Source: Patescibacteria group bacterium
GTDB taxonomy: Bacteria; Patescibacteriota; Patescibacteriia; CAIXNZ01
Length of the DNA: 64,000 bases
Reading direction: 5' to 3'
Assembly (NCBI GenBank): GCA_041651155.1
Contig: JBAZJU010000002.1
Span: forward strand, 21,467 to 85,466
The notes beneath the pieces are model-generated. The model was not told where the DNA came from and searched no databases. It was given only the letters and a program-made list of their open reading frames with translations. Below, piece after piece: positions 5,706 to 64,000 of this stretch (its first letter is position 1; each line of letters opens with the position of its first letter). The position numbers and the translations under genes are program-made.

Positions 5706-5819
5706 GTCTTTATTTTAACAAAAAATATGCCTTTTTAAAAGCAGAAAAAAGTGATAGAATGAAGATGTTACAAATATACAAATCAAATACAAATTATTAC
5801 AAATATTAATAAGGGTATT

Positions 5820-6263: not shown

Positions 6264-6303
6264 TTTGTAAATATTCGTCATAATATTTGCATATTTGTAT
6301 CAT

Positions 6304-9069: not shown

Positions 9070-9075
9070 AATTGC

Positions 9076-9112
9076 TAGAGGTTCGGCCTCCAATTTGGAG
9101 GCCGAACCTCTA
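9076..9112. repeat. REP-like perfect palindrome (copy 1)
   Basis: tagaggttcggcctccaatttggaggccgaacctcta, 7 nt after the polA stop; second copy at 42252-42284. Confidence 0.7.
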
Positions 9113-9187
9113 CTCCTCCCCATTTGGCGCAAAAAAATCCCTAGTAAATATTATTTACTAGGGAAAGGATTGTACTTAATTTCCATA

Positions 9188-9538
9188 TTATATAGGATGG
9201 GAAAGGAAGTAAACTCCAGGCGAATCTGTCTTGGGATCAAAACTTTTGACTTGCTTTGCAAATAATTCAGCAGCTTTATCCAGAATTTTTTTCGACGCCA
9301 TGGGCAGAACATGCCAGGTTGTTGAACCATCTTCATTCGTCTTAAAAACGATATCACCAAGATATTTATAGGTGCCATTAACATTGCACCAGATGTAAAT
9401 ACCATGCCATGCTTCTGAATTCACAATTCCAGCAACCAATTTTTCGCCGATGCGGATTAATGTTTGATCCTGATTGGAAACTGATTCGATATCCATTTCT
9501 ACGAATTCACCACTGACGAGTTTTACTCTTTTAGACAT
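9188..9538 (-). CDS. hypothetical protein
   Basis: ORF with strong SD (aaaaaaggaggatcgaATG). Confidence 0.5.
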   Translation of the reverse strand: MSKRVKLVSGEFVEMDIESVSNQDQTLIRIGEKLVAGIVNSEAWHGIYIWCNVNGTYKYLGDIVFKTNEDGSTTWHVLPMASKKILDKAAELFAKQVKSFDPKTDSPGVYFLSHPI

Positions 9539-9863
9539 TCGATCCTCCTTTTTTAAAAATTACTTTGTACACTTAAGCTGTATTTTTGATTTGAGCGCAC
9601 TGGGAGGGAGTCTGACCCTCACGGACTCTTACCCTATAGGCAAGTTAGTCCACTAGGTTTGGAACCTAGCGCGTCTCAATTCCGCCACCAGTGCATAGAT
9701 TACTATTTATCATATTTTCTCAACCTTGTCAATCCCATTCGCGTCATTCGCATTCAAAATATTCGCATAAATTTAAAAAGCCGACAATTTAATGCCAGCT
9801 TATGCTTACCCACCGTAGCTCATAGGAGTCCAAATGGGTTGTTGTGTTTATGAAAGATAGAGC

Positions 9864-10412
9864 CTACTTACGCACACCGCCGAACCAAACTACATTTTCA
9901 AATGCACTATTGCTGCCAGCATAACTTCTTCTGACACTAACAATGCGACCGCAACCATCTTCATCTCTATAAAAAATGGCGTAGCCCCAATCTTGGTCTT
10001 GGATTTTCCAAAGAGCCATGTTAGGGAACTCATCCGCAAATTCGAGTTCATTCTCATTGACTGCTGCAACCGCATAAGGGTCATAGATCATCCCCCGATT
10101 TTTAAACTCTCTATCCAAATCTATAAAGGGGATATAATCCACTTTCCCATTGAAAAGAGTGAAAAATACGACTTCAACATTATCTTTTTTTTGGGTCTCG
10201 CATGCAGGCATAGTTCTTAATGCATCGGTTTCCACATATTCTTTCCGGTGAGTGAATGCTATTTCGGCCTTATCCCTATTTTTGATCTCGCATTCGGGTA
10301 TGGTCACTATCACAATGCTTTCCTTGGATATAACCCGACCAGTAGCATTAATTACTTCTTCAGGTGTACGCGTATAATCAACGGAAACGACCCGTCTGAT
10401 TCCGCTAAACAT
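9864..10412 (-). CDS. hypothetical protein
   Basis: ORF track only. Confidence 0.4.
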   Translation of the reverse strand: MFSGIRRVVSVDYTRTPEEVINATGRVISKESIVIVTIPECEIKNRDKAEIAFTHRKEYVETDALRTMPACETQKKDNVEVVFFTLFNGKVDYIPFIDLDREFKNRGMIYDPYAVAAVNENELEFADEFPNMALWKIQDQDWGYAIFYRDEDGCGRIVSVRRSYAGSNSAFENVVWFGGVRK

Positions 10413-10606
10413 GATAGCTGTACCTCATTCCTTTCTTCCGCTTTAAGCGGATATTAAAGCTCATTCTCTGATACCTCGTAAGGCATCGCTTCTATTTATT
10501 TAAAAGTTCAATCCGTTTTTCAGCTCATGAAAAAATTTCCTGGGCTAAAGACGAAAGGTGAGTCAGTTCCCATGAGAATATGGCTCACCTAAAATTTTTA
10601 TTTGAG

Positions 10607-10816
10607 TTACCGCAAGAGGTGCATAAAACGAATATCTGTAATCAAGGCAAAAATTGAAATTACCATAATACAGATATTAAGGAAGAAGGGTGAATCTGTT
10701 ACGTGACGGCTACTGAAGCACGAGATAAGTCCCAGGAACGAAAAAAGGATTCCAAACCCTACCACCACAAAAACAGATAACAAGATTATTTTCGCGAAGA
10801 AATCTAAAATGAACAT
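10607..10816 (-). CDS. small membrane protein (69 aa)
   Basis: SD aaggaggtagtaaaATG; two hydrophobic helices; downstream hairpin 10561-10593. Confidence 0.45.
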   Translation of the reverse strand: MFILDFFAKIILLSVFVVVGFGILFSFLGLISCFSSRHVTDSPFFLNICIMVISIFALITDIRFMHLLR

Positions 10817-10995
10817 TTTACTACCTCCTTAAATTGTTTTCAAAAAAACTTTATGCGCGGGAAAGGCACCTTTGCGCCCTCCCGCACACTATTGAAACCT
10901 CCAGATTTCAATAACTCTAATCTTAGCATATTTTGGAGGTTTTGTCAAGACTTACGGAAATTGCTGATTGTGCTAAAATAAAGCTACCGCTGAAA

Positions 10996-11092
10996 TAAGA
11001 AATAAGTAATATGTAATACGGAAAGGAATATAAATTATATTTAAATAATCTTCCCATCCGTATTTCTTATTACCTATTACGTATTACTGCAT
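10996..11092. repeat. palindromic AT-rich element (GTAATAYGTAATA arms), copy upstream of holA
   Basis: gtaatatgtaatacggaaaggaata...ccgtatttcttattacctattacgtattac. Related copies at 31181-31285 and flanking 43201-43572. Confidence 0.7.
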
Positions 11093-11108
11093 TTTCATAT
11101 ACAAACCT

Positions 11109-12080
11109 ATGATAATATTTTTATACGGTGAAGATACGTATAGATCAAATCAGAAACTCACCCAAATCAAAGCCAAGTTCCTCAAAGAAGTTGATAGTAC
11201 TTCTATGAACTTAACCACCTTAGACGGTGCCAAGCTTAAATTTGAAGAATTTAACCAGCAGGTCAAAGCCAGCCCGTTTTTAGCGCGCAAAAGAATGATT
11301 ATTATAAAAAATTTAATTTCTGAAAATAAATCCAAGGAAATCCAGAAAGAAGTGGTGGAACTTTTAAATTCAACTGACCAAAACGCTAAAGACGAAAATA
11401 TCCTGGTTTTCTGGGAAAGCGCCAGCCATTCCAAAACCAAGGGCAAAGACGCGCTTTGGACACGACTAGCCAAAGAAAAACTGGCTGAAGAATTTGAGCC
11501 CTTAAGACCGGCCCAACTTAATGCCTGGGTCAAAAAAGAAATTGAAACGCAAGGAGGCAAAATTGATAACCAGACCATTGCTTTATTAGCCGCCACTGTC
11601 GGCAATGACCTCTGGCAAATGGCCAATGAGATTACTAAGCTCACAAATTATTGCCAAACCAAGCCGATTACCGCTGCTGACATTGAAAATCTGGTCAAAG
11701 CCAAATTTGATGACAATATTTTTAATTTGGTTGATGCCTTAGGCAATAATAATAAAAAACTGGCTTTTAAATTAATGTCAGACCAATTTAATTTGGAAGC
11801 TGACGAAATGTATTTGCTTTCCATGCTAATTCGCCAGTTTAGAATTTTACTGGAAATTAAAGATTTAATAAATGAGCATCCTAAAATTACCAAAGATTTA
11901 ATTGCTAAAGATTTAAGCATTCATCCTTTTGTAGCTCAAAAAGCATTATGGCAGGTTAAAAATTTCACTTTTGCTAAGCTTAAACAAATTTACCAGCTCC
12001 TTTTAGACCTTGACTTTAAACTCAAAACCTCCCAATCAAAACCCAAGGTTCTTTTTGACCTCTTTATCGCCCAAATTTAA
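11109..12080 (+). CDS. holA: DNA polymerase III delta subunit
   Basis: LYGEDTY start and LWQMANEITKL, typical of HolA. Confidence 0.75.
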   Translation: MIIFLYGEDTYRSNQKLTQIKAKFLKEVDSTSMNLTTLDGAKLKFEEFNQQVKASPFLARKRMIIIKNLISENKSKEIQKEVVELLNSTDQNAKDENILVFWESASHSKTKGKDALWTRLAKEKLAEEFEPLRPAQLNAWVKKEIETQGGKIDNQTIALLAATVGNDLWQMANEITKLTNYCQTKPITAADIENLVKAKFDDNIFNLVDALGNNNKKLAFKLMSDQFNLEADEMYLLSMLIRQFRILLEIKDLINEHPKITKDLIAKDLSIHPFVAQKALWQVKNFTFAKLKQIYQLLLDLDFKLKTSQSKPKVLFDLFIAQI

Positions 12081-17655: not shown

Positions 17656-17894
17656 ATACTTATGAAGGCGGATTGAAGAGGTCGCAGATTCAAGCCCTGC
17701 AATGGCCATACGAAGGCAGGTTCGTAAGGTCACTGGTTCAAACCCAGTATTGCCCACCTTTGTCCTACGAAGCTTTAGACGGTCGGTCTTCGGCCTTTAC
17801 AGACGGAAGTCGGCTACTGAGCCGACGAATGTCGTTAAGCACAGCCCACAAAACAACATTATTACTTATTACTAATTACTTATTACTAATTTAC

Positions 17895-23079: not shown

Positions 23080-23385
23080 AAGCGATATGGCTACAGTTTG
23101 CATTTGCCCATTTAATTCCCCTCCGCCCTTCCCGCCAGAGGCGGACACAGCGTCCAACCTGCCTGCCGGCAGGCAGGAACGGAAAAAGAAAAGTATAGCT
23201 GGCTACCCCTTCGACTCCGCTTCGTTCCGCTCAGGGTCCGCCCATATTGTTCGTCTTAAGATAATCAAGATATACTATAAATAACTAATTCAAAACGAAC
23301 AACATCAGATATCCCGAAACGTTATCGGAAATTTTATTTGCCCTTAATTTTATTTTAATTTTACCCTTTTAATCTAAATTTTAAT

Positions 23386-35639: not shown

Positions 35640-35894
35640 TGCCTGGGGGCAGAATCGAACTGCCAACCTGCCTGCCGGCAGGCAGGCGCAAGGCTACGAA
35701 CCACTCACTTCGTTCGGGTGCATGGTAAATTTTTCAGCCTGCCCTGCACTAAAAATTTACTATTGCCGAAGGGCAGAATCGAACTGCCAACGCAAGGATT
35801 TTCAGTCCTTCGCTCTACCACTGAGCTACTTCGGCTCATTTGTATAATATTTTTTAGTGCAGGGTCCTTCGCTCTACCACTGAGCTACCCAGGC
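35640..35894 (-). pseudogene. disrupted tRNA-Phe-like gene split by nested insertions (outer gene)
   Basis: 5' half GCCTGGGTAGCTCAGTGGTAGAGCGAAGGAC at 35894-35864 and 3' part CCTTGCG[CCTGCCTGCCGGCAGGCAGG]TTGGCAGTTCGATTCTGCCCCCAGGCA at 35694-35641, interrupted by an intact tRNA-Phe flanked by 15-bp inverted repeats. Confidence 0.55.
35764..35835 (-). tRNA. tRNA-Phe(GAA), intact, nested inside the disrupted copy
   Basis: GCCGAAG-TA-GCTCAGTGGTAGAGC-G-AAGGA-CTGAAAA-TCCTT-GCGTT-GGCAG-TTCGATT-CTGCC-CTTCGGC-A. Confidence 0.85.
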
Positions 35895-36688: not shown

Positions 36689-38190
<1,502 letters not shown>

Positions 38191-38584
38191 ATGTGATATT
38201 AAAGTATATCACGGACTTATTGTAGAAGTTTTAAACTTCAAATGATTTGACGATTCTATCACTTTTTAGTTGTCAAAGCTTCGCCTTGAATTTCTAATTC
38301 TTGATTTTTGTAAATCTCGAGCGAAGTCCCGAGTCCCGCTACGCGGGACGAGGGATCCATTCCTTCTTTTTTTAAAGAAAGAAAAAAACAGGGAAATCCA
38401 TTGTCTTTTTAAATTATCCCGCTCCGCGGGATTTTTAATAGATTGAATTTGCCTGTTTTTTTCTCCTCCCTTCGACTCGCTCCGCTCGCTCAGGGCAAAG
38501 CCCTTGCCAATATTCTTGCGACCAAGGATATCATCGAAAAAATAAATTTTATTAAGAGTAATTGAAAATTTTAAAGGTTATTTT

Positions 38585-41775: not shown

Positions 41776-41982
41776 TTAATATAATTATTTTAAGTCCTAA
41801 TGCATTTTAACTACTCTATTAAATATTTCTCCATTTCTTTTTTCTTTTTCATAAATAAAGCGGTTTCTTCTGCTATTTTTTTATAATCCCGAACTTCGTC
41901 TAATATAATTTGTTTACTGCAAAGATTATTTTCTTTTATCCCTAAATAAGCGGGGTAACTGCACCATGGGTAATCAGCGGCA

Positions 41983-42498
41983 TTATCGGTTATTCCGTGA
42001 ATCTGGGCATTGGTGTTTTACATAGACGGAAAGCCAAAGCAAATGGTCAAAAGAAGTTATTTGAGTCGCTTTAAATTTACCTTGGAATAACACTCCGTTT
42101 CGATTATTTTTAGTATTGAAATACATAGTATAAGATGTCCCTAAACGCTGCATGAATTTTATAATACCGTTTTCTGCTAATTGCCTTACTATAAAATGAT
42201 AATGATTGGGATTTAAACAGTAACAGATAAATTCTACCAGGGGGTCGCTCAAAGGTTCGGCCTCCAAATTGGAGGCCGAACCTTGATCGCCTTGGTCGCC
42301 TACCTTAACTATTTCATTTATCGCTCTTTCCCTCAAAAACTTCCGATAAAACCCACCATCAACTTTGTTAGTATTGAATTCTGTCATGCTTTTTAAGAAT
42401 CTTAAATAATCGCCTTCGTCTAAAAAAACATCGCGTTTATCAACACCGCGATTATAGATATGGTAATATTCGTTATTATTGAAAATTATTTTTCGCAT
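41983..42498 (-). CDS. RAYT/IS200-like Y1 (HuH) transposase carrying an in-frame REP insertion
   Basis: YHIYNRG, HuH motif HYHFIV, GVLFQGKF and Tyr in SVYVKHQ; segment GDQGDQGSASNLEAEPLS is encoded by the palindrome at 42252-42284. Confidence 0.65.
   Translation of the reverse strand: MRKIIFNNNEYYHIYNRGVDKRDVFLDEGDYLRFLKSMTEFNTNKVDGGFYRKFLRERAINEIVKVGDQGDQGSASNLEAEPLSDPLVEFICYCLNPNHYHFIVRQLAENGIIKFMQRLGTSYTMYFNTKNNRNGVLFQGKFKATQITSFDHLLWLSVYVKHQCPDSRNNR
42252..42284. repeat. REP-like palindrome (copy 2), inside the RAYT-like gene
   Basis: aaggttcggcctccaaattggaggccgaacctt with adjacent direct repeats ccttgatcgc / cttggtcgcc. Confidence 0.7.
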
Positions 42499-42503
42499 AA
42501 ATA

Positions 42504-43166
42504 CTAAAAATGACTTTTCTTCTGTCTTTCTCTCCACTCCTTAATCTTGCCGTGATTCCCCGAAAGTAAAACCCCTGGAACTTTCCAGCTCTTAAACTTT
42601 TCCGGCTTAGTATATTGCGGATATTCTAATTCGGCTTGCCCCATTGGGGTTTCTTTGGAAAATGATTCATCTTTTGGCGATTCTAGATTACCTAAAACAC
42701 CAGGCAATAATCTGGTAATCCCATCAACCAAAACCATGGCTGGAATTTCACCGCCGGTTAAGACATAATTGCCAATAGAAATTTCTTCATCAGCCAAATG
42801 TTCAGCCACGCGATTATCAACTCCTTCGTAACGGCCGCAAATCATTATTAACTGGTCATATTTTTTCAAACGTCTCAATTCCTTTTGGGTTAAAGTTTTG
42901 CCCCGAGCAGAAAACAAAATTACCCGAACTTTCTTTTTCTTCTTTATTGACTTGAGCGCCTTATAAATCGGTTCAATTTTTAAAAGCATGCCCGCGCCTC
43001 CGCCATAGGGCGTGTCATCAACTGATTTGTATTTATTGCCCGCATACTGGCGTAAGTCAGTGATTTTAATATAAATTATTTTTTTCATTTGCGCGCGCTT
43101 AACCATGGCTGTGTTGAAATAGCTGTCAAAAATTTGGGGGAAGATGGTGATGATGTTGAAAGTCAT
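42504..43166 (-). CDS. trmD: tRNA (guanine37-N1)-methyltransferase
   Basis: TrmD-fold similarity throughout (ITIFPQ, GGGAGMLLKIEPIYKAL, YEGVDNRV). Confidence 0.9.
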   Translation of the reverse strand: MTFNIITIFPQIFDSYFNTAMVKRAQMKKIIYIKITDLRQYAGNKYKSVDDTPYGGGAGMLLKIEPIYKALKSIKKKKKVRVILFSARGKTLTQKELRRLKKYDQLIMICGRYEGVDNRVAEHLADEEISIGNYVLTGGEIPAMVLVDGITRLLPGVLGNLESPKDESFSKETPMGQAELEYPQYTKPEKFKSWKVPGVLLSGNHGKIKEWRERQKKSHF

Positions 43167-51292: not shown

Positions 51293-51330
51293 CACAGAAG
51301 AAGCGATTTGCAAATCGCTTCTTCTGTTTT
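51293..51330 (+). terminator. rho-independent terminator after tig
   Basis: cagaagaagcgatttgcaaatcgcttcttctgtttt, a perfect palindrome with T-run. Confidence 0.8.
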
Positions 51331-53220: not shown

Positions 53221-53964
53221 ATGTTAAATCCAAATGAACAACCAATTAAAGCCGCTCCCAATGAAGAAATTTTTAAAATTGCTAAAGGCAAGGAAAAAAA
53301 TTGCGCCTTTATGATTGGCAGTCTATTCCCAGAGATTAAAAATAAGGCTATCCAAGAACATTTAAATCTTATTGAAAAGGCACAGAATTATAAGGATTTT
53401 CTAAAATCTAAATCAAACGAAGAAATACTTTCAACTGCTTATAAAAAATTTGAGGAGCATATGAATGATAAAAAATATGAACTGGCTTATGGCATAGCAT
53501 GTACTTATCTAAAGCAAAATCAAATTGAAAATTCTGGCCAAAAATTGCTTGAAGAAATTTATGAAAAATTAAAAAAATCAAAAAATAAAAAAGAAATTGC
53601 TGAATTAGCCGAAAAGATACTTGAAAAAGATAGGTTCCCCTTTTTACCCGAAATAAATAGGTCAAGCGATATGGTAGAGGATTCTTTGAATTTGCTTAAT
53701 ATGGTAAGAGATAAGCGAAGTAAAATATCTGAAATCGCCTTTTATTTAGGGGAATTGAACCAAAAAATTCTGAATTGGCTAATGCCACCTTTAAAAAACC
53801 CTTTACTTTCTGAAGCTGCTCACCTTTGGGCACGCAAAGCCATTATTTCTTTAATAAACAATAAAAAAAGGGGGGAAACTAATGAATTGGCTAGCGAATG
53901 GGAAAAGAAAAAATTTTTAGACATTGAAAAAGACGCTGATATTTTTGAAGAATTAACAAAATAA
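53221..53964 (+). CDS. hypothetical helical protein, inserted between the duplicated phosphoesterase 5' ends
   Basis: ORF track; no recognisable motif. Confidence 0.4.
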   Translation: MLNPNEQPIKAAPNEEIFKIAKGKEKNCAFMIGSLFPEIKNKAIQEHLNLIEKAQNYKDFLKSKSNEEILSTAYKKFEEHMNDKKYELAYGIACTYLKQNQIENSGQKLLEEIYEKLKKSKNKKEIAELAEKILEKDRFPFLPEINRSSDMVEDSLNLLNMVRDKRSKISEIAFYLGELNQKILNWLMPPLKNPLLSEAAHLWARKAIISLINNKKRGETNELASEWEKKKFLDIEKDADIFEELTK

Positions 53965-53966
53965 TT

Positions 53967-54467
53967 ATGCTCATTGCCCTTTTCTCCGATACACACGACA
54001 ACTGGCCCAACATAGAGAAGGCCATTCATTATTTAAACAAACACAAAATCCGCACCATGATTCATTGCGGCGATATTTGCGCGCCTTTGACTCTTGAAGC
54101 CATGGCCAAACTTTTTAAAGGCAAAATCCATTTTGTCAAAGGCAATGTTGACGGTGATATTGAGGGCTTTAAGGAAAAAATCAGCCATCATAAAAATTTA
54201 AAGTATTACGGACAAACCGGGAAGATAGAAATAGGGGGACTAAAAATTGTATTTTGCCACATGCCGCTAGTTGCAAAAAAGATGGCTGCTTCTCAAAAAT
54301 ATGATTTTGTTTTTTACGGACATACGCACAAACCCTGGCAGGAAAAAATTGGCAAAACAACTTTAATTAATCCGGGAACTGTTGCGGGTTTATTTACAAA
54401 AGCTACTTTTGCCATTTTTGAGACTGAAACTAAAAAAGCGCAATTAATCATACTGGAAAAAATTTAA
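53967..54467 (+). CDS. metallophosphoesterase (YfcE-like)
   Basis: FSDTHDN...CGD...GNVDG...GHTH calcineurin-like phosphoesterase motifs. Confidence 0.75.
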   Translation: MLIALFSDTHDNWPNIEKAIHYLNKHKIRTMIHCGDICAPLTLEAMAKLFKGKIHFVKGNVDGDIEGFKEKISHHKNLKYYGQTGKIEIGGLKIVFCHMPLVAKKMAASQKYDFVFYGHTHKPWQEKIGKTTLINPGTVAGLFTKATFAIFETETKKAQLIILEKI

Positions 54468-55020
54468 ATCCTACGAAAATACAAAAATTTCCTTTAATGC
54501 TGACGTAAATTTGAATTATACTTTTTACTTTAAAATACAATAAAATATTTTTTAGCACTTATAACCAAATCCGTAGTTTCGTAGGCCAAAATTAAAGAGG
54601 GTACCAGTTTGGTACCCTCAAACGACGATAACCTCTTTAAGAGGCGGGGATTGGAACCCCACGATAGAATTTTATCGTGTCAGAACTTGATGCTTTTATT
54701 CTAGCAATTCTCTAATATTTGTCAATAGAAAAATCCCAATTTATTTATTTAAAAAAGTTAACTCTACAAAACTACAGTTCTCTATACAAATATAAAAAAT
54801 CTCCCCAGGCCATGACGTTTTGTGTTTTTTTGAGATACAACTCACAAAAAAGTGTACTTACTAGAATTATTCGTATTATTTGTAGCGTATTCGTAAATTA
54901 GTATCCATAAAAAAAGAGAGGGCACTGGGTGGTGTGTCCTCTGACTAAATGAGTGAAATTGTGGCGGGCGGGGGAAAAGTACTGTTTTTAATCCTGGAAG
55001 AGCCTCTTTGGGGCTATTTT

Positions 55021-55230
55021 TTATTTACTTCTTTTTTTTTGAGCAGTGATAACAACTCCCAAACCAAATGTTTTATGGCACTTTTTACATTCAATCCAAA
55101 TTGAATGAAGAATCCCCAACCGTCCACTACAAGATGGGCATTCCTTGGTCAAAGCCTTTTTTTGCATGGCCAGCAGAATTTTATAATAGAGCTGGTGCCT
55201 AAACAGTGGCTGGCAATTTAGACCTCCCAT
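55021..55230 (-). CDS. zinc-ribbon small protein
   Basis: CPSCSG...CKKCHKT Cys pairs; SD gaggaggattgaaATG. Confidence 0.5.
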   Translation of the reverse strand: MGGLNCQPLFRHQLYYKILLAMQKKALTKECPSCSGRLGILHSIWIECKKCHKTFGLGVVITAQKKRSK

Positions 55231-55351
55231 TTCAATCCTCCTCGCTTAATTAGTATGGTATACTATAAGTATAATTTATTAATATCCAATAATCAATGAT
55301 CAATTTTAAATTAAATTGGTTATTGAAAATTGGTAATCGGACATTAATCAT

Positions 55352-55786
55352 ATGTGGGACATTTTAATAATTGCGTCAAAGCTTTTTTTGGCTGTAATTC
55401 TAGGCTGGATAATCGGCATAGAAAGAGAAACACTGGGCAAACCAGCTGGCAGCAGAACATATGCTCTGATTGCCTTAGGCTCTGCCTTCTATACCATCCT
55501 GGCGGTTCAAGGTTTTAATCAAACCATAATGGCCGGACAAATTATTGTGGGCATTGGTTTTATTGGCGCCGGCATGATTATTTTTCATAAACAGCATATT
55601 GAGGGGCTAACCACGGCCTCTGCTCTTTGGGCTATTGCCGCAGTCGGCATGGCCATTGGGATCGGCTGGTATATTGTAGCAATATTTGCCAGTTTATTGA
55701 TTTTTCTTTTGCTTTTCATCGTCAGAAAAATTGAATTTTCTAAAAACAAAAAAAATACCTTATGGACACTATTCGACAAGAAATAA
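55352..55786 (+). CDS. MgtC/SapB family membrane protein
   Basis: ILGWIIGIERE..GSRTYALIALGSA MgtC signature. Confidence 0.75.
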   Translation: MWDILIIASKLFLAVILGWIIGIERETLGKPAGSRTYALIALGSAFYTILAVQGFNQTIMAGQIIVGIGFIGAGMIIFHKQHIEGLTTASALWAIAAVGMAIGIGWYIVAIFASLLIFLLLFIVRKIEFSKNKKNTLWTLFDKK

Positions 55787-56547
55787 AAAATGAACTGCCT
55801 GTGCTAATTAGAAAAGCAGGGCAGGAATTGCTTAAAATATTTCATCACAGTTCAAAAAACCATCTTAAATTTAAAAGCAAGCATGAAATCGTGACCAGCG
55901 CTGATTTTCTGTCTGAAAAGATAATTTTACAAAAGATTAAGGCCTTAACTCCTAACTGGCGGATAATTTCAGAGGAAAGAGGTGATAATAAAAAGGCCAG
56001 TGATTATCTGTGGTCAATTGATCCTCTGGATGGCACAACCAATTTTTATATGGGCAATCCTTTATTTGCCGTGCAAATAGCTTTGCTTTACAAAAATGAG
56101 CCTATTTTGGCGTGGATTTATGCACCCGCATTAAAAGAATATTATTTCGCGGCCAAAAATAAAGGCGCATATTTAAATAACAAAAAAATTAGTGTTTCAA
56201 ACCGGCCGCTAAAAAAAGCTCTTTTAACCTTTTGCCATGGCGATGACCAGGGTGATTTAAAAAGAGCGATTAAAATTTACGGCCATTTCAAATTGCACAG
56301 TTTTGACATTAGGCAATTAGGCTCAGCCGCCTTGGAATTTGGCTGGGTAGCCAAAGGCCGAACTGACTGCTATATTTCTCCTGGCCACAGGCTCTGGGAT
56401 ATTGCGCCCGGCATTCTCTTGGTTAAAGAAGCAGGCGGCAAGATTTATGACTTTCATGGCAAACCTTGGCGTCTTGGCGCCAAAAGCGTTTTTGCCAGCA
56501 ATGGTGTAATTGATAAAGATATTTTAAAATTTTTAAAAAAACTTTAA
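55762..56547 (+). CDS. inositol monophosphatase family protein (SuhB/CysQ-like)
   Basis: WSIDPLDGTTNF and WDIAPG motifs. Confidence 0.8.
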   Translation: MDTIRQEIKNELPVLIRKAGQELLKIFHHSSKNHLKFKSKHEIVTSADFLSEKIILQKIKALTPNWRIISEERGDNKKASDYLWSIDPLDGTTNFYMGNPLFAVQIALLYKNEPILAWIYAPALKEYYFAAKNKGAYLNNKKISVSNRPLKKALLTFCHGDDQGDLKRAIKIYGHFKLHSFDIRQLGSAALEFGWVAKGRTDCYISPGHRLWDIAPGILLVKEAGGKIYDFHGKPWRLGAKSVFASNGVIDKDILKFLKKL

Positions 56548-56626
56548 CCCTTTTTACGTGTCATCCAAAGCTTTAGCGTAGGATGACCCCTTTTACTCTT
56601 ATTACCCTTCTTACCCTTTAACTCTT

Positions 56627-57229
56627 ATGCTCCTCAAAATTAATTCCCAAAATCCTGAACCTGAAAAACTTGATCAAGTCGTTGAAGTTTTAAAAAATGG
56701 CGGCCTTATTGTTTATCCTACTGACACGATTTACGGCCTGGGCTGTGATATTTTCAATAAAAAAGCCATTGCTAAAATTTACCAGTTTAAAAAGCGCGAA
56801 ACCAAAAAACCTTTAAGTATAATCTGCCAGGACATAAAAGAAGCAGCTAAATATGCGATTATCCAGGATTCCGCCTTTGCCCTATTTAAAAAATATTTGC
56901 CTGGGTCTTTTACTTTTATTTTAAAAGCGCGAAGCCAAACTCCCAAAACAGTCTTGTCTAAAAATAAAACAGTCGGCATTAGAATCCCAGCTAATAATAT
57001 CTGCTTACAAATTGTTAAAATGCTTGGCAATCCCATAATAACTACTAGCCTAAATATCTCTGGACAGGAAGTTTTGACTAATCCAAATCAGCTGAGCAAG
57101 GAAATGCAAAATAAAATTGATTTAATCATTGATTCCGGCTCCTTGGGTCAAGAACCATCAACAATCGTTGACCTTAGCAATAACATCCCCCTTATCTTAA
57201 GAAACGGCAAAGGAAAATTAACTCTATGA
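56627..57229 (+). CDS. tsaC: L-threonylcarbamoyladenylate synthase (TsaC/YrdC)
   Basis: GGLIVYPTDTIYGLGCD YrdC signature. Confidence 0.8.
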   Translation: MLLKINSQNPEPEKLDQVVEVLKNGGLIVYPTDTIYGLGCDIFNKKAIAKIYQFKKRETKKPLSIICQDIKEAAKYAIIQDSAFALFKKYLPGSFTFILKARSQTPKTVLSKNKTVGIRIPANNICLQIVKMLGNPIITTSLNISGQEVLTNPNQLSKEMQNKIDLIIDSGSLGQEPSTIVDLSNNIPLILRNGKGKLTL

Positions 57230-57510
57230 AAAATGTAATAAAAACAATTTTAATAATTATTGTCTTTATTGTCCTGGCCATTGCTATTGCCATTGCCTTT
57301 ACTACTTTTTTAGCTCCCAAAGAAGAATTAACCAGATATAGCGATTGCATTTTACTTCAAAATAGCAAAACCGGTAAAATAGGCTGTTTTGGCTGCGCTA
57401 ATAATATCTGCAAAGATGCGAGCAAGGACTGGGTTACTTATAAAAAACCGGAAATAGGCATTCCCTATGCCTGCTTTAAATCTGACCAAGGCTGTGAATT
57501 AGCCCAATAA
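57226..57510 (+). CDS. small membrane-anchored Cys-rich protein
   Basis: ORF; one TM and six Cys. Confidence 0.35.
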   Translation: MKNVIKTILIIIVFIVLAIAIAIAFTTFLAPKEELTRYSDCILLQNSKTGKIGCFGCANNICKDASKDWVTYKKPEIGIPYACFKSDQGCELAQ

Positions 57511-57512
57511 TT

Positions 57513-57776
57513 GTGGGATTTAAGATTTATGATTTAAGATTAAAGTTTATGGGAAGTAAAATTATAAGCGTAAAAGTCATACCTAATTCAAAAATTAATA
57601 AAATTGTTGAACAAAAAGAAAATTTTTTGAAAATAAAATTAACTGCTCCAGCGCATGAAGGCAAGGCTAATAAAGCCTTAATAATTTTTCTAAGCCAGGA
57701 ACTTAAAATCCCTAAAAGTAAAATCAAAATTATTTCAGGTGAAAAATCCAGGGAGAAAAAAATTTTGATTTCTTAG
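57513..57776 (+). CDS. DUF167 (YggU-like) protein
   Basis: KVIPNSK...IKLTAPAHEGKANKALIIFLS pattern. Confidence 0.65.
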   Translation: MGFKIYDLRLKFMGSKIISVKVIPNSKINKIVEQKENFLKIKLTAPAHEGKANKALIIFLSQELKIPKSKIKIISGEKSREKKILIS

Positions 57777-57886
57777 TTATATTCTCAGCTCTAAAAAACT
57801 CAAATTTCTTGAGTTTTTTTATTTGACAAATTTTTTAGCAAGCACTAAACTCAAAAAAAAGGCACAAGGTGCCAAAAGGAGGAAAA

Positions 57887-58957
57887 ATGTCCCTTAAAAA
57901 ATATCAAAAGGCTTTGGCGTCATTAGCTTTTCAAACCGAAAATGTCCAACCCAGGCGCTATATTGATTACTACAGAAACTATTATGACGATGACGTTCAC
58001 TTTTTTGAAGTCCTGGATCCTTTTGAAATGGATGCGCACAAGATAATCAACAGCAAAGCTTTCCGCCGGCTGCAATATAAAACGCAGGTTTTCCCAACGC
58101 CAAATAATTCGCATATTCGCACCCGGTTATTGCATGTAAAAGAGGTTGAATCAACCGCCGTATTGCTCGCCACAATTCTGGGTCTAAATGTGCCGATGTG
58201 CAGGGCGATTGCCTTGGGACATGATATTGGCCATGCGCCTTTCGGCCATTTTGGTGAAAAATATTTGACCCAAAAGTCTGGGAAAATTTTTTCACACGCA
58301 ATTAACGGCGCTCTCATTGCCCAAAGAATAGAACGAAAAGGAGCCGGTCTTAATCTGTGCAAAGAAACACTGCAAGGCATTTGCCATCATTCGCGTACTC
58401 AAGATCCGAATCTGACACTTTCCCAAAACGTACCCGAAGAATTCAATGTAATAATGCTGGCGGATAAAATAGCTTACGTTTTCTCAGATTACAATGATGC
58501 AAAAAGAAATAATTCCATCAAAGAGCCAAACGACTCAAACATTGAATTTTTTGGAAAAAGACAAAGGCTCCGCGCTTATCACTGCATTGAAGCTTTAGTG
58601 GAAGAGAGCGCAGAACAGGGGAAAATTGCCTTTGCTCAATCACAGACAGCTAAAGAGTTCAAAATTCTGCGGCAATGGCTGCAAAAAAATGTCTACCAGC
58701 CAATCAAATTTGACATACAGGCCATTTACTTTGAAAGGCTGTTGGACTTCTTTAGCTCTGAAAAAGACTACCAAGACTGCGATCCTTATGTCTTGCTCTC
58801 CTTATTAACAGACAACGAGGTCTTCCAGTTTGGCGAGTATTGCAAAACTGCCAGAATCCCCACTAGCGAAAATTTGGCGAATTTCGGCATTAAGGAAATT
58901 GCTCCCTGGATTAAGGGGAAAAAACTGGATTTTTCTTCTCCTAAGCTGGATTGGTAA
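57887..58957 (+). CDS. dGTP triphosphohydrolase-like HD-domain protein
   Basis: HVKEVE...ALGHDIGHAPFGH HD motif; SD aaaaggaggaaaaATG. Confidence 0.75.
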   Translation: MSLKKYQKALASLAFQTENVQPRRYIDYYRNYYDDDVHFFEVLDPFEMDAHKIINSKAFRRLQYKTQVFPTPNNSHIRTRLLHVKEVESTAVLLATILGLNVPMCRAIALGHDIGHAPFGHFGEKYLTQKSGKIFSHAINGALIAQRIERKGAGLNLCKETLQGICHHSRTQDPNLTLSQNVPEEFNVIMLADKIAYVFSDYNDAKRNNSIKEPNDSNIEFFGKRQRLRAYHCIEALVEESAEQGKIAFAQSQTAKEFKILRQWLQKNVYQPIKFDIQAIYFERLLDFFSSEKDYQDCDPYVLLSLLTDNEVFQFGEYCKTARIPTSENLANFGIKEIAPWIKGKKLDFSSPKLDW

Positions 58958-59036
58958 AAATAAAAAAACGCTTCCCGTATCGCGGGAGGCGTTTATTTTT
59001 TTATCTAATTATCGCTACAAACTGCTGAATTCCTAT

Positions 59037-59300
59037 TCAAGGCACTGGATCATGACCGCCTGGAGAAAGAGGATGGCAACGTACAATTCTTTTAATGCCC
59101 AGCCAGCTGCCTTTAATTATGCCATATTTTGAAATTGCCTGATATGTGTATTCGCTGCACGAAGGATAGAATCTACAGCCTAAAAAAGGAAAAATTTTAG
59201 ACATAAAACCATGATCAAAGGATAAAGTTTTTTGATAAAGCCTTATAACCATTAAAACTACTATGCGCAGTTGGAAGCTAAACCATTTAGTAATTTTCAT
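59037..59300 (-). CDS. yidD: membrane protein insertion efficiency factor YidD
   Basis: [10 protein letters not shown] motif. Confidence 0.85.
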
Positions 59301-59671
59301 ACTAGCAATTTGGCCTTAAATAATGTCTGGGATAAAATCTCTCCCATTTTTTTATATTCTAAAACCTTGCCTTGCTTATTAATAATTTTGGGGGAGAGGA
59401 TAATGATAATATCATAACCGTTTTTGATGCTGGAGATATTTAAGCGGATGAGTTCGCTCAAGCGCCGCCTGATTAAATTCCTTTGAGTTGCCTTCTTGCT
59501 TACCTTTGTTGAAACAATTAAGCCAAAACGCGACATATTTAAATCATTCTTAACATACCTAATTAAAAAAACAGGGGCATAGGCTGTCTGGCCCTCTTGA
59601 CTGACTTTGGCAAAATCATTTTTTTTCCTTAAGCGATAAATTTTTTTTAGCATAAAATTGTCCTGATACAA
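59297..59671 (-). CDS. rnpA: ribonuclease P protein component
   Basis: [11 protein letters not shown]...[23 protein letters not shown] RnpA pattern; follows rpmH. Confidence 0.85.
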
Positions 59672-59712
59672 AATTAGACTCTCAAGCCATGCTCGTAGAG
59701 TCTAATAATAAT

Positions 59713-59874
59713 CTATTTTCTTAATCTTTTTTCATCAGAGACTGTTAATTTTTTTCTGCCCCTGCTGCGGCGTCGTTTTAGCACCAATCTCCCCTTTTTT
59801 GAGCTCATTCTTACTAAAAATCCATGGGTCTTGGCTCTTTTTCTTTTCTTAGGCTGGTATGTTCTTTTTGGCAT
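59713..59874 (-). CDS. rpmH: 50S ribosomal protein L34 (53 aa, missed by the >=60-aa ORF track)
   Basis: Minus-strand translation [53 protein letters not shown]. Confidence 0.85.
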
Positions 59875-60095
59875 AAACTAAAATTAAATTTATAAGGCTA
59901 AATTTTGGCTATCTCTACCTAATAGATTAGCACCTGTGGAAAAATTTGTCAAAAGGAAAAATATGTATTAAGCTGTATCCACAGTATATAAACAGCTTAT
60001 AAACTTTTATGTCTTGGCTTATATTTTTCTATATTTTCTTTTATGCTATTATTTCAATATAACATACTTCTCCTAAAAAATTCTTCAGGGGCCCT
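59875..60095. promoter_or_regulatory. oriC-associated region (DnaA-box-like sites) between rpmH and dnaA
   Basis: gtatccacag (TATCCACAG) and ctgtggaaa (box-like) plus AT-rich stretches; classic rpmH|dnaA position. Confidence 0.5.
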
Positions 60096-61490
60096 ATGAA
60101 TACTCAACAAATTTGGCAAGCTGTTTTAGGCGAATTAGAGCTCTCTTTGAGCAAAGCTAATTTTACTACCTGGTTTAAGGGTACTTTTATCTTAGAAATG
60201 GATGAGCTCACTGTTATTATTGGCGTACCAAATGCTTTTACTAAAAATTGGCTGGAAAAAAAATATAATACTGAAATTCTTAAAGCTCTGCGCGAATTAA
60301 GTGAGATTAATTTTAAAGAAATTTCCTTTAAAGTCGCCTCTAAAAAAAACCAAGCCTCCCAGGCACTGGCCGAAATTACCAAGCCAACCCAAAATTCTTT
60401 TTCTCCGGAAAGGCTAACTGTAGAAAAAAGCTATTCAGCTAATCCTAAAGATTTGCCGGGTCTTGCTTATGGCTTAAATCCCAAATATACTTTTTCCGCC
60501 TTTATTGTCGGCAAAGGCAATGAACTAGCCAGGGCAGCAGCTCAATCAGTTGCAGCCACTCCCGGAGAAACCTATAATCCTCTTTTTATTTATGGCGGCG
60601 CTGGCTTAGGCAAAACCCATCTTTTACAGGCGATCGGCCATGAAATAGCCAAAAATTACAGCAAGAAAAAAATACTTTACTTAACCTGTGAAAAATTCAC
60701 TAATGATTTTGTTAATTCTGTGGCTAATGGCAAAGCCTACAATTTTAAAGACCTTTATCGTTCCGTTGATGTCTTATTAATTGATGACATCCAGTTTTTA
60801 GCTGGCAAAGAAGGCACCCAGGAGGAATTTTTTCACACCTTCAATGCCTTACATCAAAACAATAAACAAATTGTTTTGTCTGCTGACCGTCCGCCAAAAT
60901 CTATTCCGGCCTTAGAGAATCGTTTATTGACCCGGTTTGAATGGGGCATGATCGCAGATATTTCTCTGCCTGATTATGAAACTAGGCTGGCAATTTTAGA
61001 AACAAAGGCTCTGGAAAAAAAATATGCTCTTGATCGTGCTATTCTTAATTATTTAGCGACAAATATTTCCAGCAATATCAGGGAATTAGAAGGGGCTTTA
61101 AATAGAATTATTGCCTTTCATCAATTAAATGCCATCCCGCCAACCCTGGAAAGCGTAAAAAAAATCCTGGTTGGAATTACCACCAATCTGCAAAAACGAT
61201 CTCTTATACCCAAAGATATTATTTTAGCTGTTTCTAATTTTTATGATGTAAAATTAGAAGATCTATTGGGCAAATGCCGAGAAAAAAAGCTCGTTAATCC
61301 CCGCCAAATTGCCATGTTTTTGCTCAGAGAAGAAATTAAAAGTTCATTTCCCACCATTGGCCAGGAATTGGGCGGACGAGACCACACCACGGCCATGCAC
61401 GCAATTCATAAGATACAAAATGATTATGATAATGATGAAAAAACGCGCCGGGAAATAGAGCAGATCAAACAACGCCTTTATACTATTTAA
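60096..61490 (+). CDS. dnaA: chromosomal replication initiator DnaA
   Basis: GGAGLGKTHLLQAIG Walker A and a DnaA domain IV helix. Confidence 0.95.
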   Translation: MNTQQIWQAVLGELELSLSKANFTTWFKGTFILEMDELTVIIGVPNAFTKNWLEKKYNTEILKALRELSEINFKEISFKVASKKNQASQALAEITKPTQNSFSPERLTVEKSYSANPKDLPGLAYGLNPKYTFSAFIVGKGNELARAAAQSVAATPGETYNPLFIYGGAGLGKTHLLQAIGHEIAKNYSKKKILYLTCEKFTNDFVNSVANGKAYNFKDLYRSVDVLLIDDIQFLAGKEGTQEEFFHTFNALHQNNKQIVLSADRPPKSIPALENRLLTRFEWGMIADISLPDYETRLAILETKALEKKYALDRAILNYLATNISSNIRELEGALNRIIAFHQLNAIPPTLESVKKILVGITTNLQKRSLIPKDIILAVSNFYDVKLEDLLGKCREKKLVNPRQIAMFLLREEIKSSFPTIGQELGGRDHTTAMHAIHKIQNDYDNDEKTRREIEQIKQRLYTI

Positions 61491-61785
61491 ATTTTTGTGT
61501 AAAACAAGTTGATAAACCACTGGATTTCTGAGGACAGACCCTTTAAAAGCTTGCGAAAAACTATTCACACTTTTAAGCCTTTGGTGGATAAAAAACTAGT
61601 TTAAATTTTATCTGTTTTTTTCTCCACAAGCCATACACAAATCTTACCTGGCATCCTAAACAAGTTATTAAACAGTTTTTTTAAAAAAACTCCTTTATAA
61701 CCGTTAAATTTTGAACTTTTCTCAACTTATCCACTTCCTTATTACTATTATTACTTTTATAAATTAATTATTTAATAATATAAAT
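61491..61785. promoter_or_regulatory. dnaA-dnaN intergenic region with DnaA boxes and AT-rich unwinding-element-like tract
   Basis: ggtggataa (TTATCCACC), cttatccact (TTATCCACT), ttctccaca, then ttattactattattacttttataaattaattatttaataatat. Confidence 0.55.
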
Positions 61786-62952
61786 ATGAAAATATCCTGT
61801 ACTCAAGAAAATTTAAACCAAGGTCTAAATATTGTTTCTCATATTGCCAGTAAAAATACATCCTTGCCGATTTTAAGCAATGTTTTAATAAAAGCTGAAA
61901 AAGGCGTCTTAAGTTTTATTACCACAAATTTAGAAATGGGGATTAATTGTTTGGTCAGGGGAAAAATTGAGCAAGACGGCAGCTATACTGTAAGTTCAAA
62001 ATTATTTAGTGACTATATAAATTTATTGCCAAATCAAAAGATTGAAATAGAGTTAAAAGATGATTTTCTACAAATAAAATCAGCTGATCAGGATACGAAA
62101 ATTAAAGGTAATGGCTCTGAAGAATTTCCCCTAATTCCTCAGGTTGAAAAGAAAAACCCTTTTTCTTGCAAGATTTCGGATTTACTTAAAGCTCTTTCCC
62201 AGGTTTTATTTGCAGTTTCTGTGTCAGAAACCAGGCCGGAAATATCAGGCGTGTATTTTAATTTTAGCGATAATTTTCTAACCCTGACTGCTACTGACAG
62301 CTATCGCTTGGCGGAAAAGAAAATTAGGCTGAAAGAAAAAGTTAAGGCTGACAAAGAAGTGATTATACCAGCCAGAACAATTGCTGAATTGTTCAGGATT
62401 TTATCAGGCTATTCTGCTGGCCAGGAAATGTCTGGCGAAGAGACGGCCGCTTCAGACCAGCTTCAAATTTACTTTGAAGACAACCAAGTTTTATTTGAAT
62501 TTGACAGCGTGGAATTAATTTCCAGAATAATTGAGGGCCAGTACCCGAATTATAAGCAGATAATTCCAGCCAGTCATAAAACCAGGGCAGTTGTCAGCAT
62601 TGCCGAATTTATTAAAGCAGCTAAAACAGCGGCCTTATTTTCCCGTACCGGCATTTATGATATTAATTTGGAGTTTAAAGCAGGTAAGCTGATTGTTTCT
62701 TCAACTAATAGCCAATTAGGCGAGAATCAGACAAAGATTGAAACTAAGGTAGAAGGCGAGGATAATAAAATCGTGGTTAATTTTCGTTATTTATTGGATG
62801 GCTTGCAAAACAGCGATTCCTCAGACATAATTTTTGAAATGACTGATAATAACAACCCCTGCGTTTTAAGGCCGGCTGAAAGTTTGAATGAAAAAAAAGA
62901 AGCGATCGCTTCTGAAGATTATCTTTATATTATCATGCCGATAAAGCAGTAA
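61786..62952 (+). CDS. dnaN: DNA polymerase III beta sliding clamp
   Basis: Three-domain beta-clamp similarity; follows dnaA. Confidence 0.9.
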   Translation: MKISCTQENLNQGLNIVSHIASKNTSLPILSNVLIKAEKGVLSFITTNLEMGINCLVRGKIEQDGSYTVSSKLFSDYINLLPNQKIEIELKDDFLQIKSADQDTKIKGNGSEEFPLIPQVEKKNPFSCKISDLLKALSQVLFAVSVSETRPEISGVYFNFSDNFLTLTATDSYRLAEKKIRLKEKVKADKEVIIPARTIAELFRILSGYSAGQEMSGEETAASDQLQIYFEDNQVLFEFDSVELISRIIEGQYPNYKQIIPASHKTRAVVSIAEFIKAAKTAALFSRTGIYDINLEFKAGKLIVSSTNSQLGENQTKIETKVEGEDNKIVVNFRYLLDGLQNSDSSDIIFEMTDNNNPCVLRPAESLNEKKEAIASEDYLYIIMPIKQ

Positions 62953-63225
62953 AAAGTTAAGAGAATCGCTATCCCTCTAATTCGTCAAAAATGCAGGTTG
63001 TGGTTAATTTACGAAATAAATTCGCATAGAAACGAGTTAAACGAAATAAAAATAGCTCTTTTCCACCCTCGATTTGAAGTACACACTTTTATATTATAGA
63101 ATAATGCAATTTCAAATTCAAAGAAAATCAAATCAAAAACCGAAGTAAAGAAAAGATTGGATTGGCTGAAAACAGAATTATAAAAATTGAAATAATAAAC
63201 CAAAATATTAACTTTAATTATAAAT

Positions 63226-63990
63226 ATGCCAAACCAAGAAAAAGAACCAAATCCAATGCAAAAACCTGAAGAATCTACAAAAGAAGGCGTAGAAGCACTA
63301 AGTCCTGATTTTTTTGATAAATTTAGCTTAGCAAGATCTATTAGTGGCGAAAGAGCTTCCGAAGAGGATGAGACCAAAAGAGATAAATTAAGACAAGAAT
63401 TTGATTCTCTTATTCAATATTTGGGAAAAGAGGTTAAGATGCATATTAAAACAGATAAACAAATATCTGATTTTATAGACCAAGTTTTAGAAAAATGCGA
63501 TTTTGATAACCTTGTAAAAAAAGACGGTAAAATTATAAAAATCCGCCATGACAACACTATTGATGATACGTGGAGGGATATTCATCGAATAGCTTTTCCA
63601 GATGCTTCATTAGACAAGCTTGCCCTAATAGATAAAAAATTTCATTATATTTCTAACTTTCTCCTTTTTGAGTTTTGGATGAAGGTGCGAGATAATTTTT
63701 CCGACGAAAGAACATGGAATATTTTAAAAGATAGATTACTGGATGGTTGTAATTATATTATGCTGGATATGAATAAAGATTATATGGATCAAGTAACTCC
63801 CGAAGTATATTTAAAATATTTAAAAATGATTAAGAACGTTATTTCAGAAAACCCCAAATTGGAGAAAGAGATATTAAAATGGTTATGGCTTTCTTCTGAA
63901 GCAAAAAAATATTTAATGAAAGAAAAGGAGGGCGCTGAACTGATTTCATATCTGGAAAACAGGAAAAAGGAAAGTGAAAAAGAAGATTAG
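63226..63990 (+). CDS. hypothetical acidic protein
   Basis: ORF track only. Confidence 0.35.
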   Translation: MPNQEKEPNPMQKPEESTKEGVEALSPDFFDKFSLARSISGERASEEDETKRDKLRQEFDSLIQYLGKEVKMHIKTDKQISDFIDQVLEKCDFDNLVKKDGKIIKIRHDNTIDDTWRDIHRIAFPDASLDKLALIDKKFHYISNFLLFEFWMKVRDNFSDERTWNILKDRLLDGCNYIMLDMNKDYMDQVTPEVYLKYLKMIKNVISENPKLEKEILKWLWLSSEAKKYLMKEKEGAELISYLENRKKESEKED

Positions 63991-64000
63991 TTTTTCAATA

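Follow-up and report, generated by a model that had tools for sequence, protein, structure and literature searches.

A perfect palindrome of 33 nt lies in frame within the only Y1 transposase-like gene of a 64,000-nt stretch of DNA from a Patescibacteria group bacterium (assembly GCA_041651155.1, contig JBAZJU010000002.1, positions 21,467 to 85,466 of the forward strand), which is called the window in the following. We consider it probable that this palindrome is a low-copy element resembling repetitive extragenic palindromes (REPs) or REP doublets (REPINs), that it belongs to a Patescibacteria-wide clade of Y1 enzymes similar to REP-associated tyrosine transposases (RAYTs), and that the enzyme of this clade acts on the hairpin. 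This reading is built on observations, namely the anatomy of the palindrome, its family-wide pattern, its association with the Y1 gene, its in-frame copies in other genes and the palindrome turnover 3' of polA. From the fold of the Y1 enzyme, from the gene association and from precedent we infer that the hairpin is a target which this enzyme binds, cuts and copies.

Two copies of the palindrome in the window

The host gene (41811-42498, minus strand) is the single Y1 gene detected in the window by tblastn. It encodes a RAYT-like Y1 HUH endonuclease with the HUH motif NPNHYHF and the tyrosine motif SVYVNTNAQIH. The palindrome occupies positions 42252-42284 and consists of two 16-bp arms around one central base (AAGGTTCGGCCTCCAA-A-TTGGAGGCCGAACCTT; 16+1+16 nt), exactly as described in an earlier note on this DNA. 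Its minus-strand reading continues the frame of the gene as QGSASNLEAEPL, also as noted before. A second copy is present at 9076-9112, where the note had placed it, 7 nt after polA, whose stop codon ends at 9069. The identity of the two copies did not hold, since the second one has 18-bp arms (TAGAGGTTCGGCCTCCAA-T-TTGGAGGCCGAACCTCTA) and is only near-identical to the first. Over 33 nt there are three mismatches on the same strand and two if opposite strands are compared, all of them confined to the outermost pair and the central base, while the core GGTTCGGCCTCCAA/TTGGAGGCCGAACC is the same in both copies. Four palindrome matches were found in the window, whereas 0.00 are expected by chance (100 shuffles). 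The GC content of both copies is ~60% compared with ~36% for the window, and as single-stranded DNA they fold with free energies between -20.7 and -22.5 kcal/mol (z-scores between -6.6 and -9.9). An Rfam scan of the window gave no match at either palindrome.

On one side the intergenic copy is bordered by the stop codon of polA and on the other by a convergent gene of the minus strand, to which a separate terminator-like hairpin with a T-run (9138-9164, minus strand) belongs. For the copy next to polA a terminator consensus scan gives a signal on the minus strand alone, with the tail GCAATTTTAT; in the direction of polA the hairpin is not followed by a T-run. This copy starts with GTAG on the minus strand only, and a GT[AG]G foot is missing from the in-gene copy. 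A GC-rich hairpin in a genome of ~36% GC, with its other copy at a gene 3' end between convergent genes, agrees with the REP-like nature that the earlier note had proposed.

Palindromes at fixed sites of Y1 genes in Patescibacteria

A protein search retrieved 2,285 homologues, nearly all of them from metagenome-assembled genomes (MAGs) of Patescibacteria/Parcubacteria. The DNA context was read from 80 metagenome loci (loci are designated by L numbers throughout), and the counts given here refer to 69 full-length homologues. A hairpin was counted if it had a perfect stem of at least 10 bp with a stem GC of at least 0.4 and lay within the gene or within 90 nt on either side. By this criterion 63 of the 69 homologues have at least one perfect hairpin at the gene. 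The palindrome centres fall in four places, namely ~-26 nt from the start codon (39 homologues), between +187 and +221 (site 1, 41 homologues), between +457 and +495 (site 2, 17 homologues) and just past the stop codon (30 homologues). Site 1, which is the position of the in-gene palindrome of the window, is located directly ahead of the strand LVEF.YC.NPNHYH that runs into the HUH motif, and site 2 between the tyrosine motif YVN.N..VH and SW.EY; one homologue gene has a third in-gene site in its C-terminal tail. An in-gene perfect palindrome of at least 10 bp is found in 50/69 homologues and none in the remaining 19, and flanking palindromes occur in 51/69. Where both kinds are present the in-gene and flanking copies have a common 8-mer in 35 of 38 loci. 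Homologues elsewhere are bordered by their own cognate palindromes, usually on both sides of the gene, a layout that resembles a RAYT or REPtron and supports the RAYT-like reading of the earlier note. The hairpin density amounts to 2.26 per kb at the gene and drops to 0.12 per kb in the remainder of these loci, and stems of at least 10 bp are contained in 57/69 real coding sequences versus 28/1380 codon-shuffled ones. An in-gene palindrome is the normal state of this Y1 gene family.

Most palindrome copies of the family lack a GTAG...CTAC double foot. Loop orientation relative to the gene is uninformative because tcg and cga are both present at every site. A conserved GTAG target within the LVE codons was not borne out by codon usage: the Val codon of the LVE motif adjoining the insert reveals no strong GTA bias (23/71 compared with 23% background).

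On the protein level the window gene reaches 24.1 bits with the Pfam family Y1_Tnp (cut-off 23), a score barely over the threshold partly because the palindrome-encoded insert splits the match. His95, His97 and Tyr155 are invariant in 49 sequences, as is N159. A profile search of PDB sequences with the family profile gave no match. The AlphaFold model of the orthologue P0001, the protein of L007 (mean predicted local distance difference test score, pLDDT, of 86.5) finds its best solved structural match in 4ER8, the Escherichia coli TnpAREP bound to a REP hairpin (E 2.5e-7), although the Foldseek alignment of the two has only ~10% identity; the transposases of IS608, ISDra2 and IS200 follow as next matches. 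The RAYT-like character that the earlier note had assigned to the host gene is thereby supported. Residues 64-83 of P0001, which hold the palindrome-encoded peptide, are modeled as a coil that connects a helix with the strand ahead of the HUH strand. Its mean pLDDT is ~54-61 per 10-residue block and falls below 50 at residues 73-76. According to this model the insert of 12-13 residues is tolerated in a coil of low confidence.

In the alignment of homologous proteins the insert region is hypervariable in both length and sequence. It is altogether missing in P0013, P0019, P0020 and P0029, and in other homologues different peptides such as SNPQLGIGS or ELSSEASELSS are found at its position. The DNA behind these differing peptides is again a perfect palindrome, with a stem of 10-26 bp but with a quite different sequence. 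A conserved loop at the corresponding position of homologues had been named in the earlier note as an argument against a REP-like insert. Such a loop is indeed present, yet in the homologues it is likewise encoded by palindromes, which differ in sequence, and therefore a feature of the nucleic acid is confirmed and not contradicted. The same variability bears on the proposal that a peptide loop, GSASNLEAEP, is selected at the protein level and that the palindromy of its DNA is incidental. The peptide recurs in P0001, P0002, P0003 and P0005, as such selection would predict. Nevertheless this is the least credible of the explanations considered here, because the entirely different site peptides of the other homologues are each encoded by a perfect palindrome, the same DNA is found in non-coding positions as well and the region is modeled as the low-confidence coil just described. 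Moreover, under selection on the peptide the arms should vary at synonymous positions, but among orthologues no such variation was observed.

Orthologues and decay of the window gene

The in-gene palindrome was compared with that of four orthologous loci. In L007 the order is the same as in the window (trmD, Y1, then a convergent radical-SAM gene), the Y1 protein is 83% identical, the gene is intact and the palindrome together with one base on each side is identical in 35/35 nt. The Y1 gene of L088 (78% identity) also follows trmD and contains the identical palindrome plus a duplicated half-copy upstream. An identical palindrome is found in the orthologous Y1 gene of L098, which originates from an independent sample, and the order trmD-Y1-radical SAM is kept in L007, L088 and L098. 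In the more distant L087 (72% protein identity) the Y1 gene resides in another genomic context after ndk; here the palindrome has the same core, a flipped central base and an outermost pair that is changed from A-T to G-C on both arms. Judged from these alignments, the in-gene palindrome is inherited with the gene.

Two of the five clade members have suffered independent inactivating lesions, whereas the palindrome is untouched in all five. In L098 a deletion of 61 nt has affected the C-terminal part of the Y1 gene (L098:500-1010 compared with window 41811-42300). In the window an A-run at 42016-42019 (minus strand) contains a 1-nt insertion relative to the orthologues L007 and L098, which are both without the extra A. 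This insertion shifts the frame directly past the codon of the catalytic tyrosine, and it probably disables the gene, which is probably a pseudogene in this genome. In addition a 9-bp tandem duplication is located at 42283-42300 (minus strand; plus-strand units TTGATCGCC/TTGGTCGCC) that reads GDQ GDQ. Both units are on the same side of the palindrome and L007 has a single unit, by which a target-site duplication is ruled out. The near-repeat of 9-10 bp reported in the earlier note thus exists but is a one-sided tandem duplication and not an insertion scar. In neither flank of the window gene were palindrome copies found, and its downstream hairpin is an unrelated terminator. Upstream, the stop codon of trmD (42504-43166, minus strand) precedes the Y1 start codon by 5 nt (42499-42503); the order of trmD and Y1 is conserved in L007 and L088, and therefore no upstream palindrome is present at the window gene. 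With its frameshift, its duplication and no flanking copies the window gene looks like a gene in decay.

The earlier note had regarded the palindrome as an unusual interruption, with what looked like an insertion scar, that may inactivate or modulate the RAYT-like gene. Read in this way, a recent one-off REP insertion would have inactivated the gene and left a scar. Such an event would be in line with a gene that is likely non-functional owing to its frameshift and with the near-repeat adjoining the palindrome. It is highly improbable all the same: the palindrome occupies the same codon in L007, L088 and L087, where the gene is intact, a palindrome is found at this site in 41 of the 69 homologues and the encoded residues fall in a coil. 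Furthermore, the inactivating lesion is the 1-nt insertion ~230 nt away from the palindrome and the adjoining repeat is one-sided and not shared by L007.

Copies in other genomes and replacement at the polA 3' site

One genome from each of 185,579 species was scanned for exact matches to the core. Six stretches were detected, in six different Patescibacteria MAGs with one copy in each, and they share a core of 29 nt. In viral contigs no exact match to the palindrome was found. The six copies differ in their settings. In L004 the core is in frame inside the gene of methionyl-tRNA synthetase (MetRS), with 31-bp arms and GTAG...CTAC feet, and the Pfam MetRS domain spans the insert. In L005 it is in frame inside an open reading frame (ORF) of ~1,000 amino acids for a PD-(D/E)XK nuclease (Pfam PDDEXK_1). 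L006 has the core directly 3' of another Y1 gene whose product is only 47% identical to P0001, and in L003 it is located ~3 kb from a Y1 gene with a different cognate palindrome. The copies of L001 and L002 are apparently intergenic. Among palindromes away from Y1 genes in all loci, 18/46 lie inside long ORFs, some of which resemble UvrC, RsmI and RlmN as far as motifs judged by eye can tell. In-frame REP-like palindromes in housekeeping genes were observed at L004:4590-4654, L005:1144-1180, L040:7439-7478, L015:7758-7780, L008:4334-4376 and L046:2212-2259, the host genes being confirmed by Pfam for L004 and L005 and otherwise judged from motifs by eye.

A close relative of which the C-terminal region of polA is 96% identical (L094:1180-1290 compared with window 9070-9135) carries at the 3' site a different perfect palindrome with the arms GTAGAGACACGGTT and AACCGTGTCTCTAC and with GTAG...CTAC feet. 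It is enclosed by an outer hairpin, TTGCGCCAAATGGGG...CCCCATTTGGCGCAA, and the right arm of the latter is all that remains in the window (CCCCATTTGGCGCAA, 9118-9132, plus strand), i.e., the arm that pairs with TTGCGCCAAATGGGG in L094. As the comparison of the two loci indicates, the polA 3' site underwent a recent replacement of its palindrome.

Conservation of the arms and their maintenance

For pairs of orthologous loci the matching nucleotides of the hairpin were compared with the identity at third codon positions. The figures are 30/33 versus 0.54 for L007-L087, 47/51 versus 0.46 for L008-L010, 30/32 versus 0.50 for L025-L026 and 51/58 versus 0.51 for L045-L049. Between such orthologues the hairpin has changed far less than the third codon positions. 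In further orthologue pairs the site is occupied by two different palindromes (19/51, 37/92), and therefore palindromes are also replaced in place.

Copies within one locus have a common core and often copy-specific yet complementary outer extensions, which reach at least 3 bp beyond the core in 29/123 copies where 1.9 would be expected. The native downstream MetRS codons of L004, TTTTGGCC, encoding FWP, have their mirror image in the outer left arm, GGCCAAAA. Along with the duplications adjoining the hairpin in the window and in L088, these observations fit templated copying from arm to arm, and such copying by template switching during replication could be at least partly responsible for the perfection of the palindromes. 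Alternatively, the perfect arms may be due to selection on pairing.

The same observations could be taken further. Palindromes might arise and be perfected by replication template switching (fold-back synthesis) at spots that are prone to slippage and structurally permissive, and they might be spread by ordinary recombination without participation of any transposase, so that the link with Y1 genes would be incidental or reflect a hot spot. The excess of copy-specific extensions, the mirrored MetRS codons of L004, the compensated arm changes and flipped central base of L087 and the duplications adjoining the hairpin in the window and in L088 are all of the kind that template switching would produce. 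However, we regard it as improbable that this is the whole explanation. It does not account for one and the same 29-nt core in different genes of six unrelated genomes, nor for an 18-fold enrichment of the cognate palindrome at Y1 genes in four fixed sites, and it explains the perfection of the arms better than the origin of the palindrome.

A possible role in cis

Some upstream palindromes are of an ACTTGG type (L049:5962-6003, L050:5962-6003, L056:2797-2836 and L084:3560-3601) and supply TTGGAC or TTGGAA as a -35-like box, and a TATAAT-like box follows that ends ~6 nt ahead of the ATG. This arrangement suggests that the upstream hairpin of this type overlaps a promoter of leaderless type, which would allow autoregulation.

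From here it is a short step to a hairpin that serves as cis-regulatory element of the Y1 gene, either by attenuation of translation or transcription at the level of mRNA or operator or by autoregulation through the Y1 protein binding its own gene or message, with in-gene and promoter-proximal copies that would be selected for control and would not be remnants of mobility. In its favor are palindrome positions that stay the same with respect to the gene even among very divergent homologues, the overlap of ACTTGG-type copies with promoter-like boxes, the conservation of hairpin nucleotides well above that of synonymous sites and the palindrome that stays intact in two orthologues with a broken coding sequence. 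On the other hand the same palindrome occurs in unrelated genes and intergenic sites of other genomes, its loop orientation is not fixed with respect to transcription, 19/69 homologues have no in-gene hairpin and the window gene follows trmD at a distance of 5 nt in the same orientation without any upstream copy. As a sole explanation cis-regulation seems unlikely to us, but it can coexist with a REP-like element on which the Y1 enzyme acts.

A combination of both is conceivable in the form of a self-targeting circuit, in which the Y1 enzyme would recognise the hairpins in and around its own gene and thereby control its expression or homogenise the hairpins, the clade being a phylum-wide reservoir of low-copy RAYTs. 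We put this forward tentatively, as a possibility that is rather doubtful at present. If it were true, the hairpins would be selected in their own right and outlast the decay of the gene, and a low-copy RAYT system would decorate MetRS, helicase-nuclease, UvrC-like and RsmI-like ORFs with palindrome-encoded loops.

A probable REP-like element of a Patescibacteria Y1 clade

The explanation which we prefer, a low-copy REP- or REPIN-like element of a Patescibacteria-wide RAYT-like clade, would work as follows. In the normal layout of the clade one lineage-specific perfect palindrome is repeated at as many as four fixed positions. Once extruded from single-stranded DNA, the hairpin would act as the substrate that the Y1 enzyme recognises and cleaves, by analogy with E. 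coli TnpAREP and with IS608 TnpA. Rare copying events might place the hairpin at gene 3' ends, as in the polA copy, and might also put it in frame into permissive protein loops, including one in the gene of the enzyme itself. The in-gene copy is no disruption; it encodes a low-confidence coil of 12-13 residues and is passed on with the gene, and its arms would be kept perfectly complementary via selection on the hairpin or via templated repair from arm to arm.

Several points weigh against this explanation. The copy number is low: two copies are found in ~83 kb, i.e., in the window plus extensions of 9.4 kb and 10 kb beyond it that contain no further palindrome copies, and each of the six MAGs contributed one exact copy, whereas classical REPs number in hundreds. 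The window gene is frameshifted and without flanking copies and cannot now mobilise anything. With the NCBIfam RAYT equivalog NF047646 it scores 26.6 bits and does not reach the cut-off of 80. The clade has no regular GT[AG]G foot. Finally, the loci were gathered by way of the Y1 gene, and the hairpin counts are restricted to perfect stems.

The clade bears on the question of how hairpins of REPs or REPINs are recognised and copied by RAYTs. In the searchable literature Patescibacteria are not described as REP hosts, and our search found no paper on REPs or RAYTs in the phylum of this clade. It represents a compact natural series of over 2,000 homologues, whose perfect palindromes are specific to a lineage and occupy four fixed sites, two of them coding, and the co-variation of protein and hairpin could be read directly from it. 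Palindrome inserts also explain some of the odd short inserts in essential proteins of Patescibacteria. Three warnings follow for annotation. The palindrome-encoded loop is a partial cause of the low Pfam scores of these Y1 genes, inserts of this kind are not to be annotated as disruptions, and the actual lesion of the window gene is the frameshift.

Other features of the window

Further palindromes were observed besides the element described above. A second shared perfect palindrome, (CCAA)CCTGCCTGCCGGCAGGCAGG, is found at 23153-23177 and 35662-35686 of the window, and it occurs also at L035:2392, L078:5403 and L080:7178, i.e., in unrelated loci of Patescibacteria with different flanks each time. 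Its copy at 35.6 kb is part of a tRNA-like stretch between tRNA-Pro and tRNA-Phe with a T-arm-like GGCAGTTCGATTCTGCC on the minus strand; neither ARAGORN nor Rfam gave a call on this stretch. A 34-nt perfect palindrome with the arms ACAGAAGAAGCGATTTG and CAAATCGCTTCTTCTGT (51294-51327), unrelated in sequence to the REP-like element, lies 22 nt past the stop codon of a 461-aa ORF that resembles trigger factor, as judged from its sequence. At the contig end of L067 (positions 20-152) three tandem hairpins, AGGTCCGACCCC-tatgacc-GGGGTCGGACCT, with a spacing of 50 nt form a small array of a different palindrome.

As to the remaining gene content, dnaA and dnaN with rnpA and yidD upstream (60096-62952) mark a replication-origin region near the window end. 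A 16S rRNA gene is followed by tRNA-Ile (36690-38191), and no 23S rRNA is present in the window. A tRNA-Cys of 93 nt (17666-17758) was called by ARAGORN alone. Window positions 1-11125 are 100% identical to k141_2776651 (61 kb) and positions 53226-64000 are 100% identical to k141_2778245 (132 kb), both from ENA assembly ERZ27247363. The two ends match two different contigs of that assembly, and therefore the record of the window joins them.

Comparison with known systems

The Patescibacteria clade shares features with several described groups of Y1 enzymes and palindromes. The closest parallel in layout is TnpAY1 subclass 2.4 (Bertels group 4), in which REPs not only flank the tnpAREP gene but are also inserted into it with the frame preserved (Quentin et al. 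2018, PMC6006769). Both here and there cognate palindromes are found around and inside the Y1 gene, long palindromes in the style of a 'double foot' occur and the inserts are situated in a peripheral and variable region of the protein. The motifs differ, with NH[IFV]H, WQ and YIxNNP in subclass 2.4 and NHYH, FQ and YVNxNA in the clade. The inserts of subclass 2.4 are described as 'generally between HuH and Y', whereas those of the clade are found ahead of the HUH motif and past the tyrosine motif. Moreover, the phylum of the clade is Patescibacteria instead of the Cyanobacteria or Bacteroidetes of subclass 2.4, a regular GT[AG]G foot is missing and the copy number is very low. The signature Y---NP of TnpAY1 class 2 as a whole (Quentin 2018) is not found either, since the window gene has YVNTNA with Ala replacing Pro.

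If published motif descriptions are compared, the clade is nearer to the second motif set of subclass 2.1 (TIRYT), which comprises NH[YF]H and 'FQ', than to subclass 2.4 (PMC3733652; Quentin 2018). A length of ~220-240 aa and a C-terminal tail are further common traits, and the end palindromes of the clade would register as terminal inverted repeats. However, subclass 2.1 was reported to be without REP-like structures, while hairpin palindromes are the rule in the clade, and its tyrosine motif is Y[IV]HLNP instead of YVNxNA.

With the E. coli TnpAREP (REPtron) the clade has in common the Y1 HUH fold, a low-copy and vertically inherited gene and homologues with cognate flanking hairpins, and in both cases dispersed copies are found at gene 3' ends between convergent genes. 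E. coli REPs are imperfect, bulged and present in hundreds of copies, whereas the palindromes of the clade are perfect and often nested, with two copies in 83 kb here; the REPtron gene is flanked by REPs and the window gene has no flanking copies. The IS200/IS605 TnpA proteins are likewise Y1 HUH enzymes with hairpins at both gene ends, and the logic of a single-stranded hairpin as substrate is the same. Unlike these multi-copy elements with the motif Y---Q, the window gene is present in single copy, is syntenic across relatives and has YVNxNA, i.e., it is not an insertion sequence. IS200/IS605 ends consist of distinct imperfect hairpins, while in homologues of the clade the same perfect palindrome is found at both ends.

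A last comparison concerns palindromes inside coding sequences. The elements of Patescibacteria are much shorter (~23-65 bp) than Rickettsia palindromic elements (RPE), of which RPE-1 has a length of ~100-150 bp, and they differ from these by being linked to a Y1 gene and by being perfect palindromes. Common to them and to the intragenic GTAG/CGTC REPs is the presence of in-frame palindromes in housekeeping genes (PMC3733652). REPs related to the Rickettsia elements were described inside genes of tRNA synthetases, helicases, polymerases and repair enzymes (Di Nocera et al. 2013, PMC3733652). In-frame REPs in RAYT genes are known in kind from other phyla, and the Patescibacteria clade differs from them in its motifs, its sites, its copy number and its foot.

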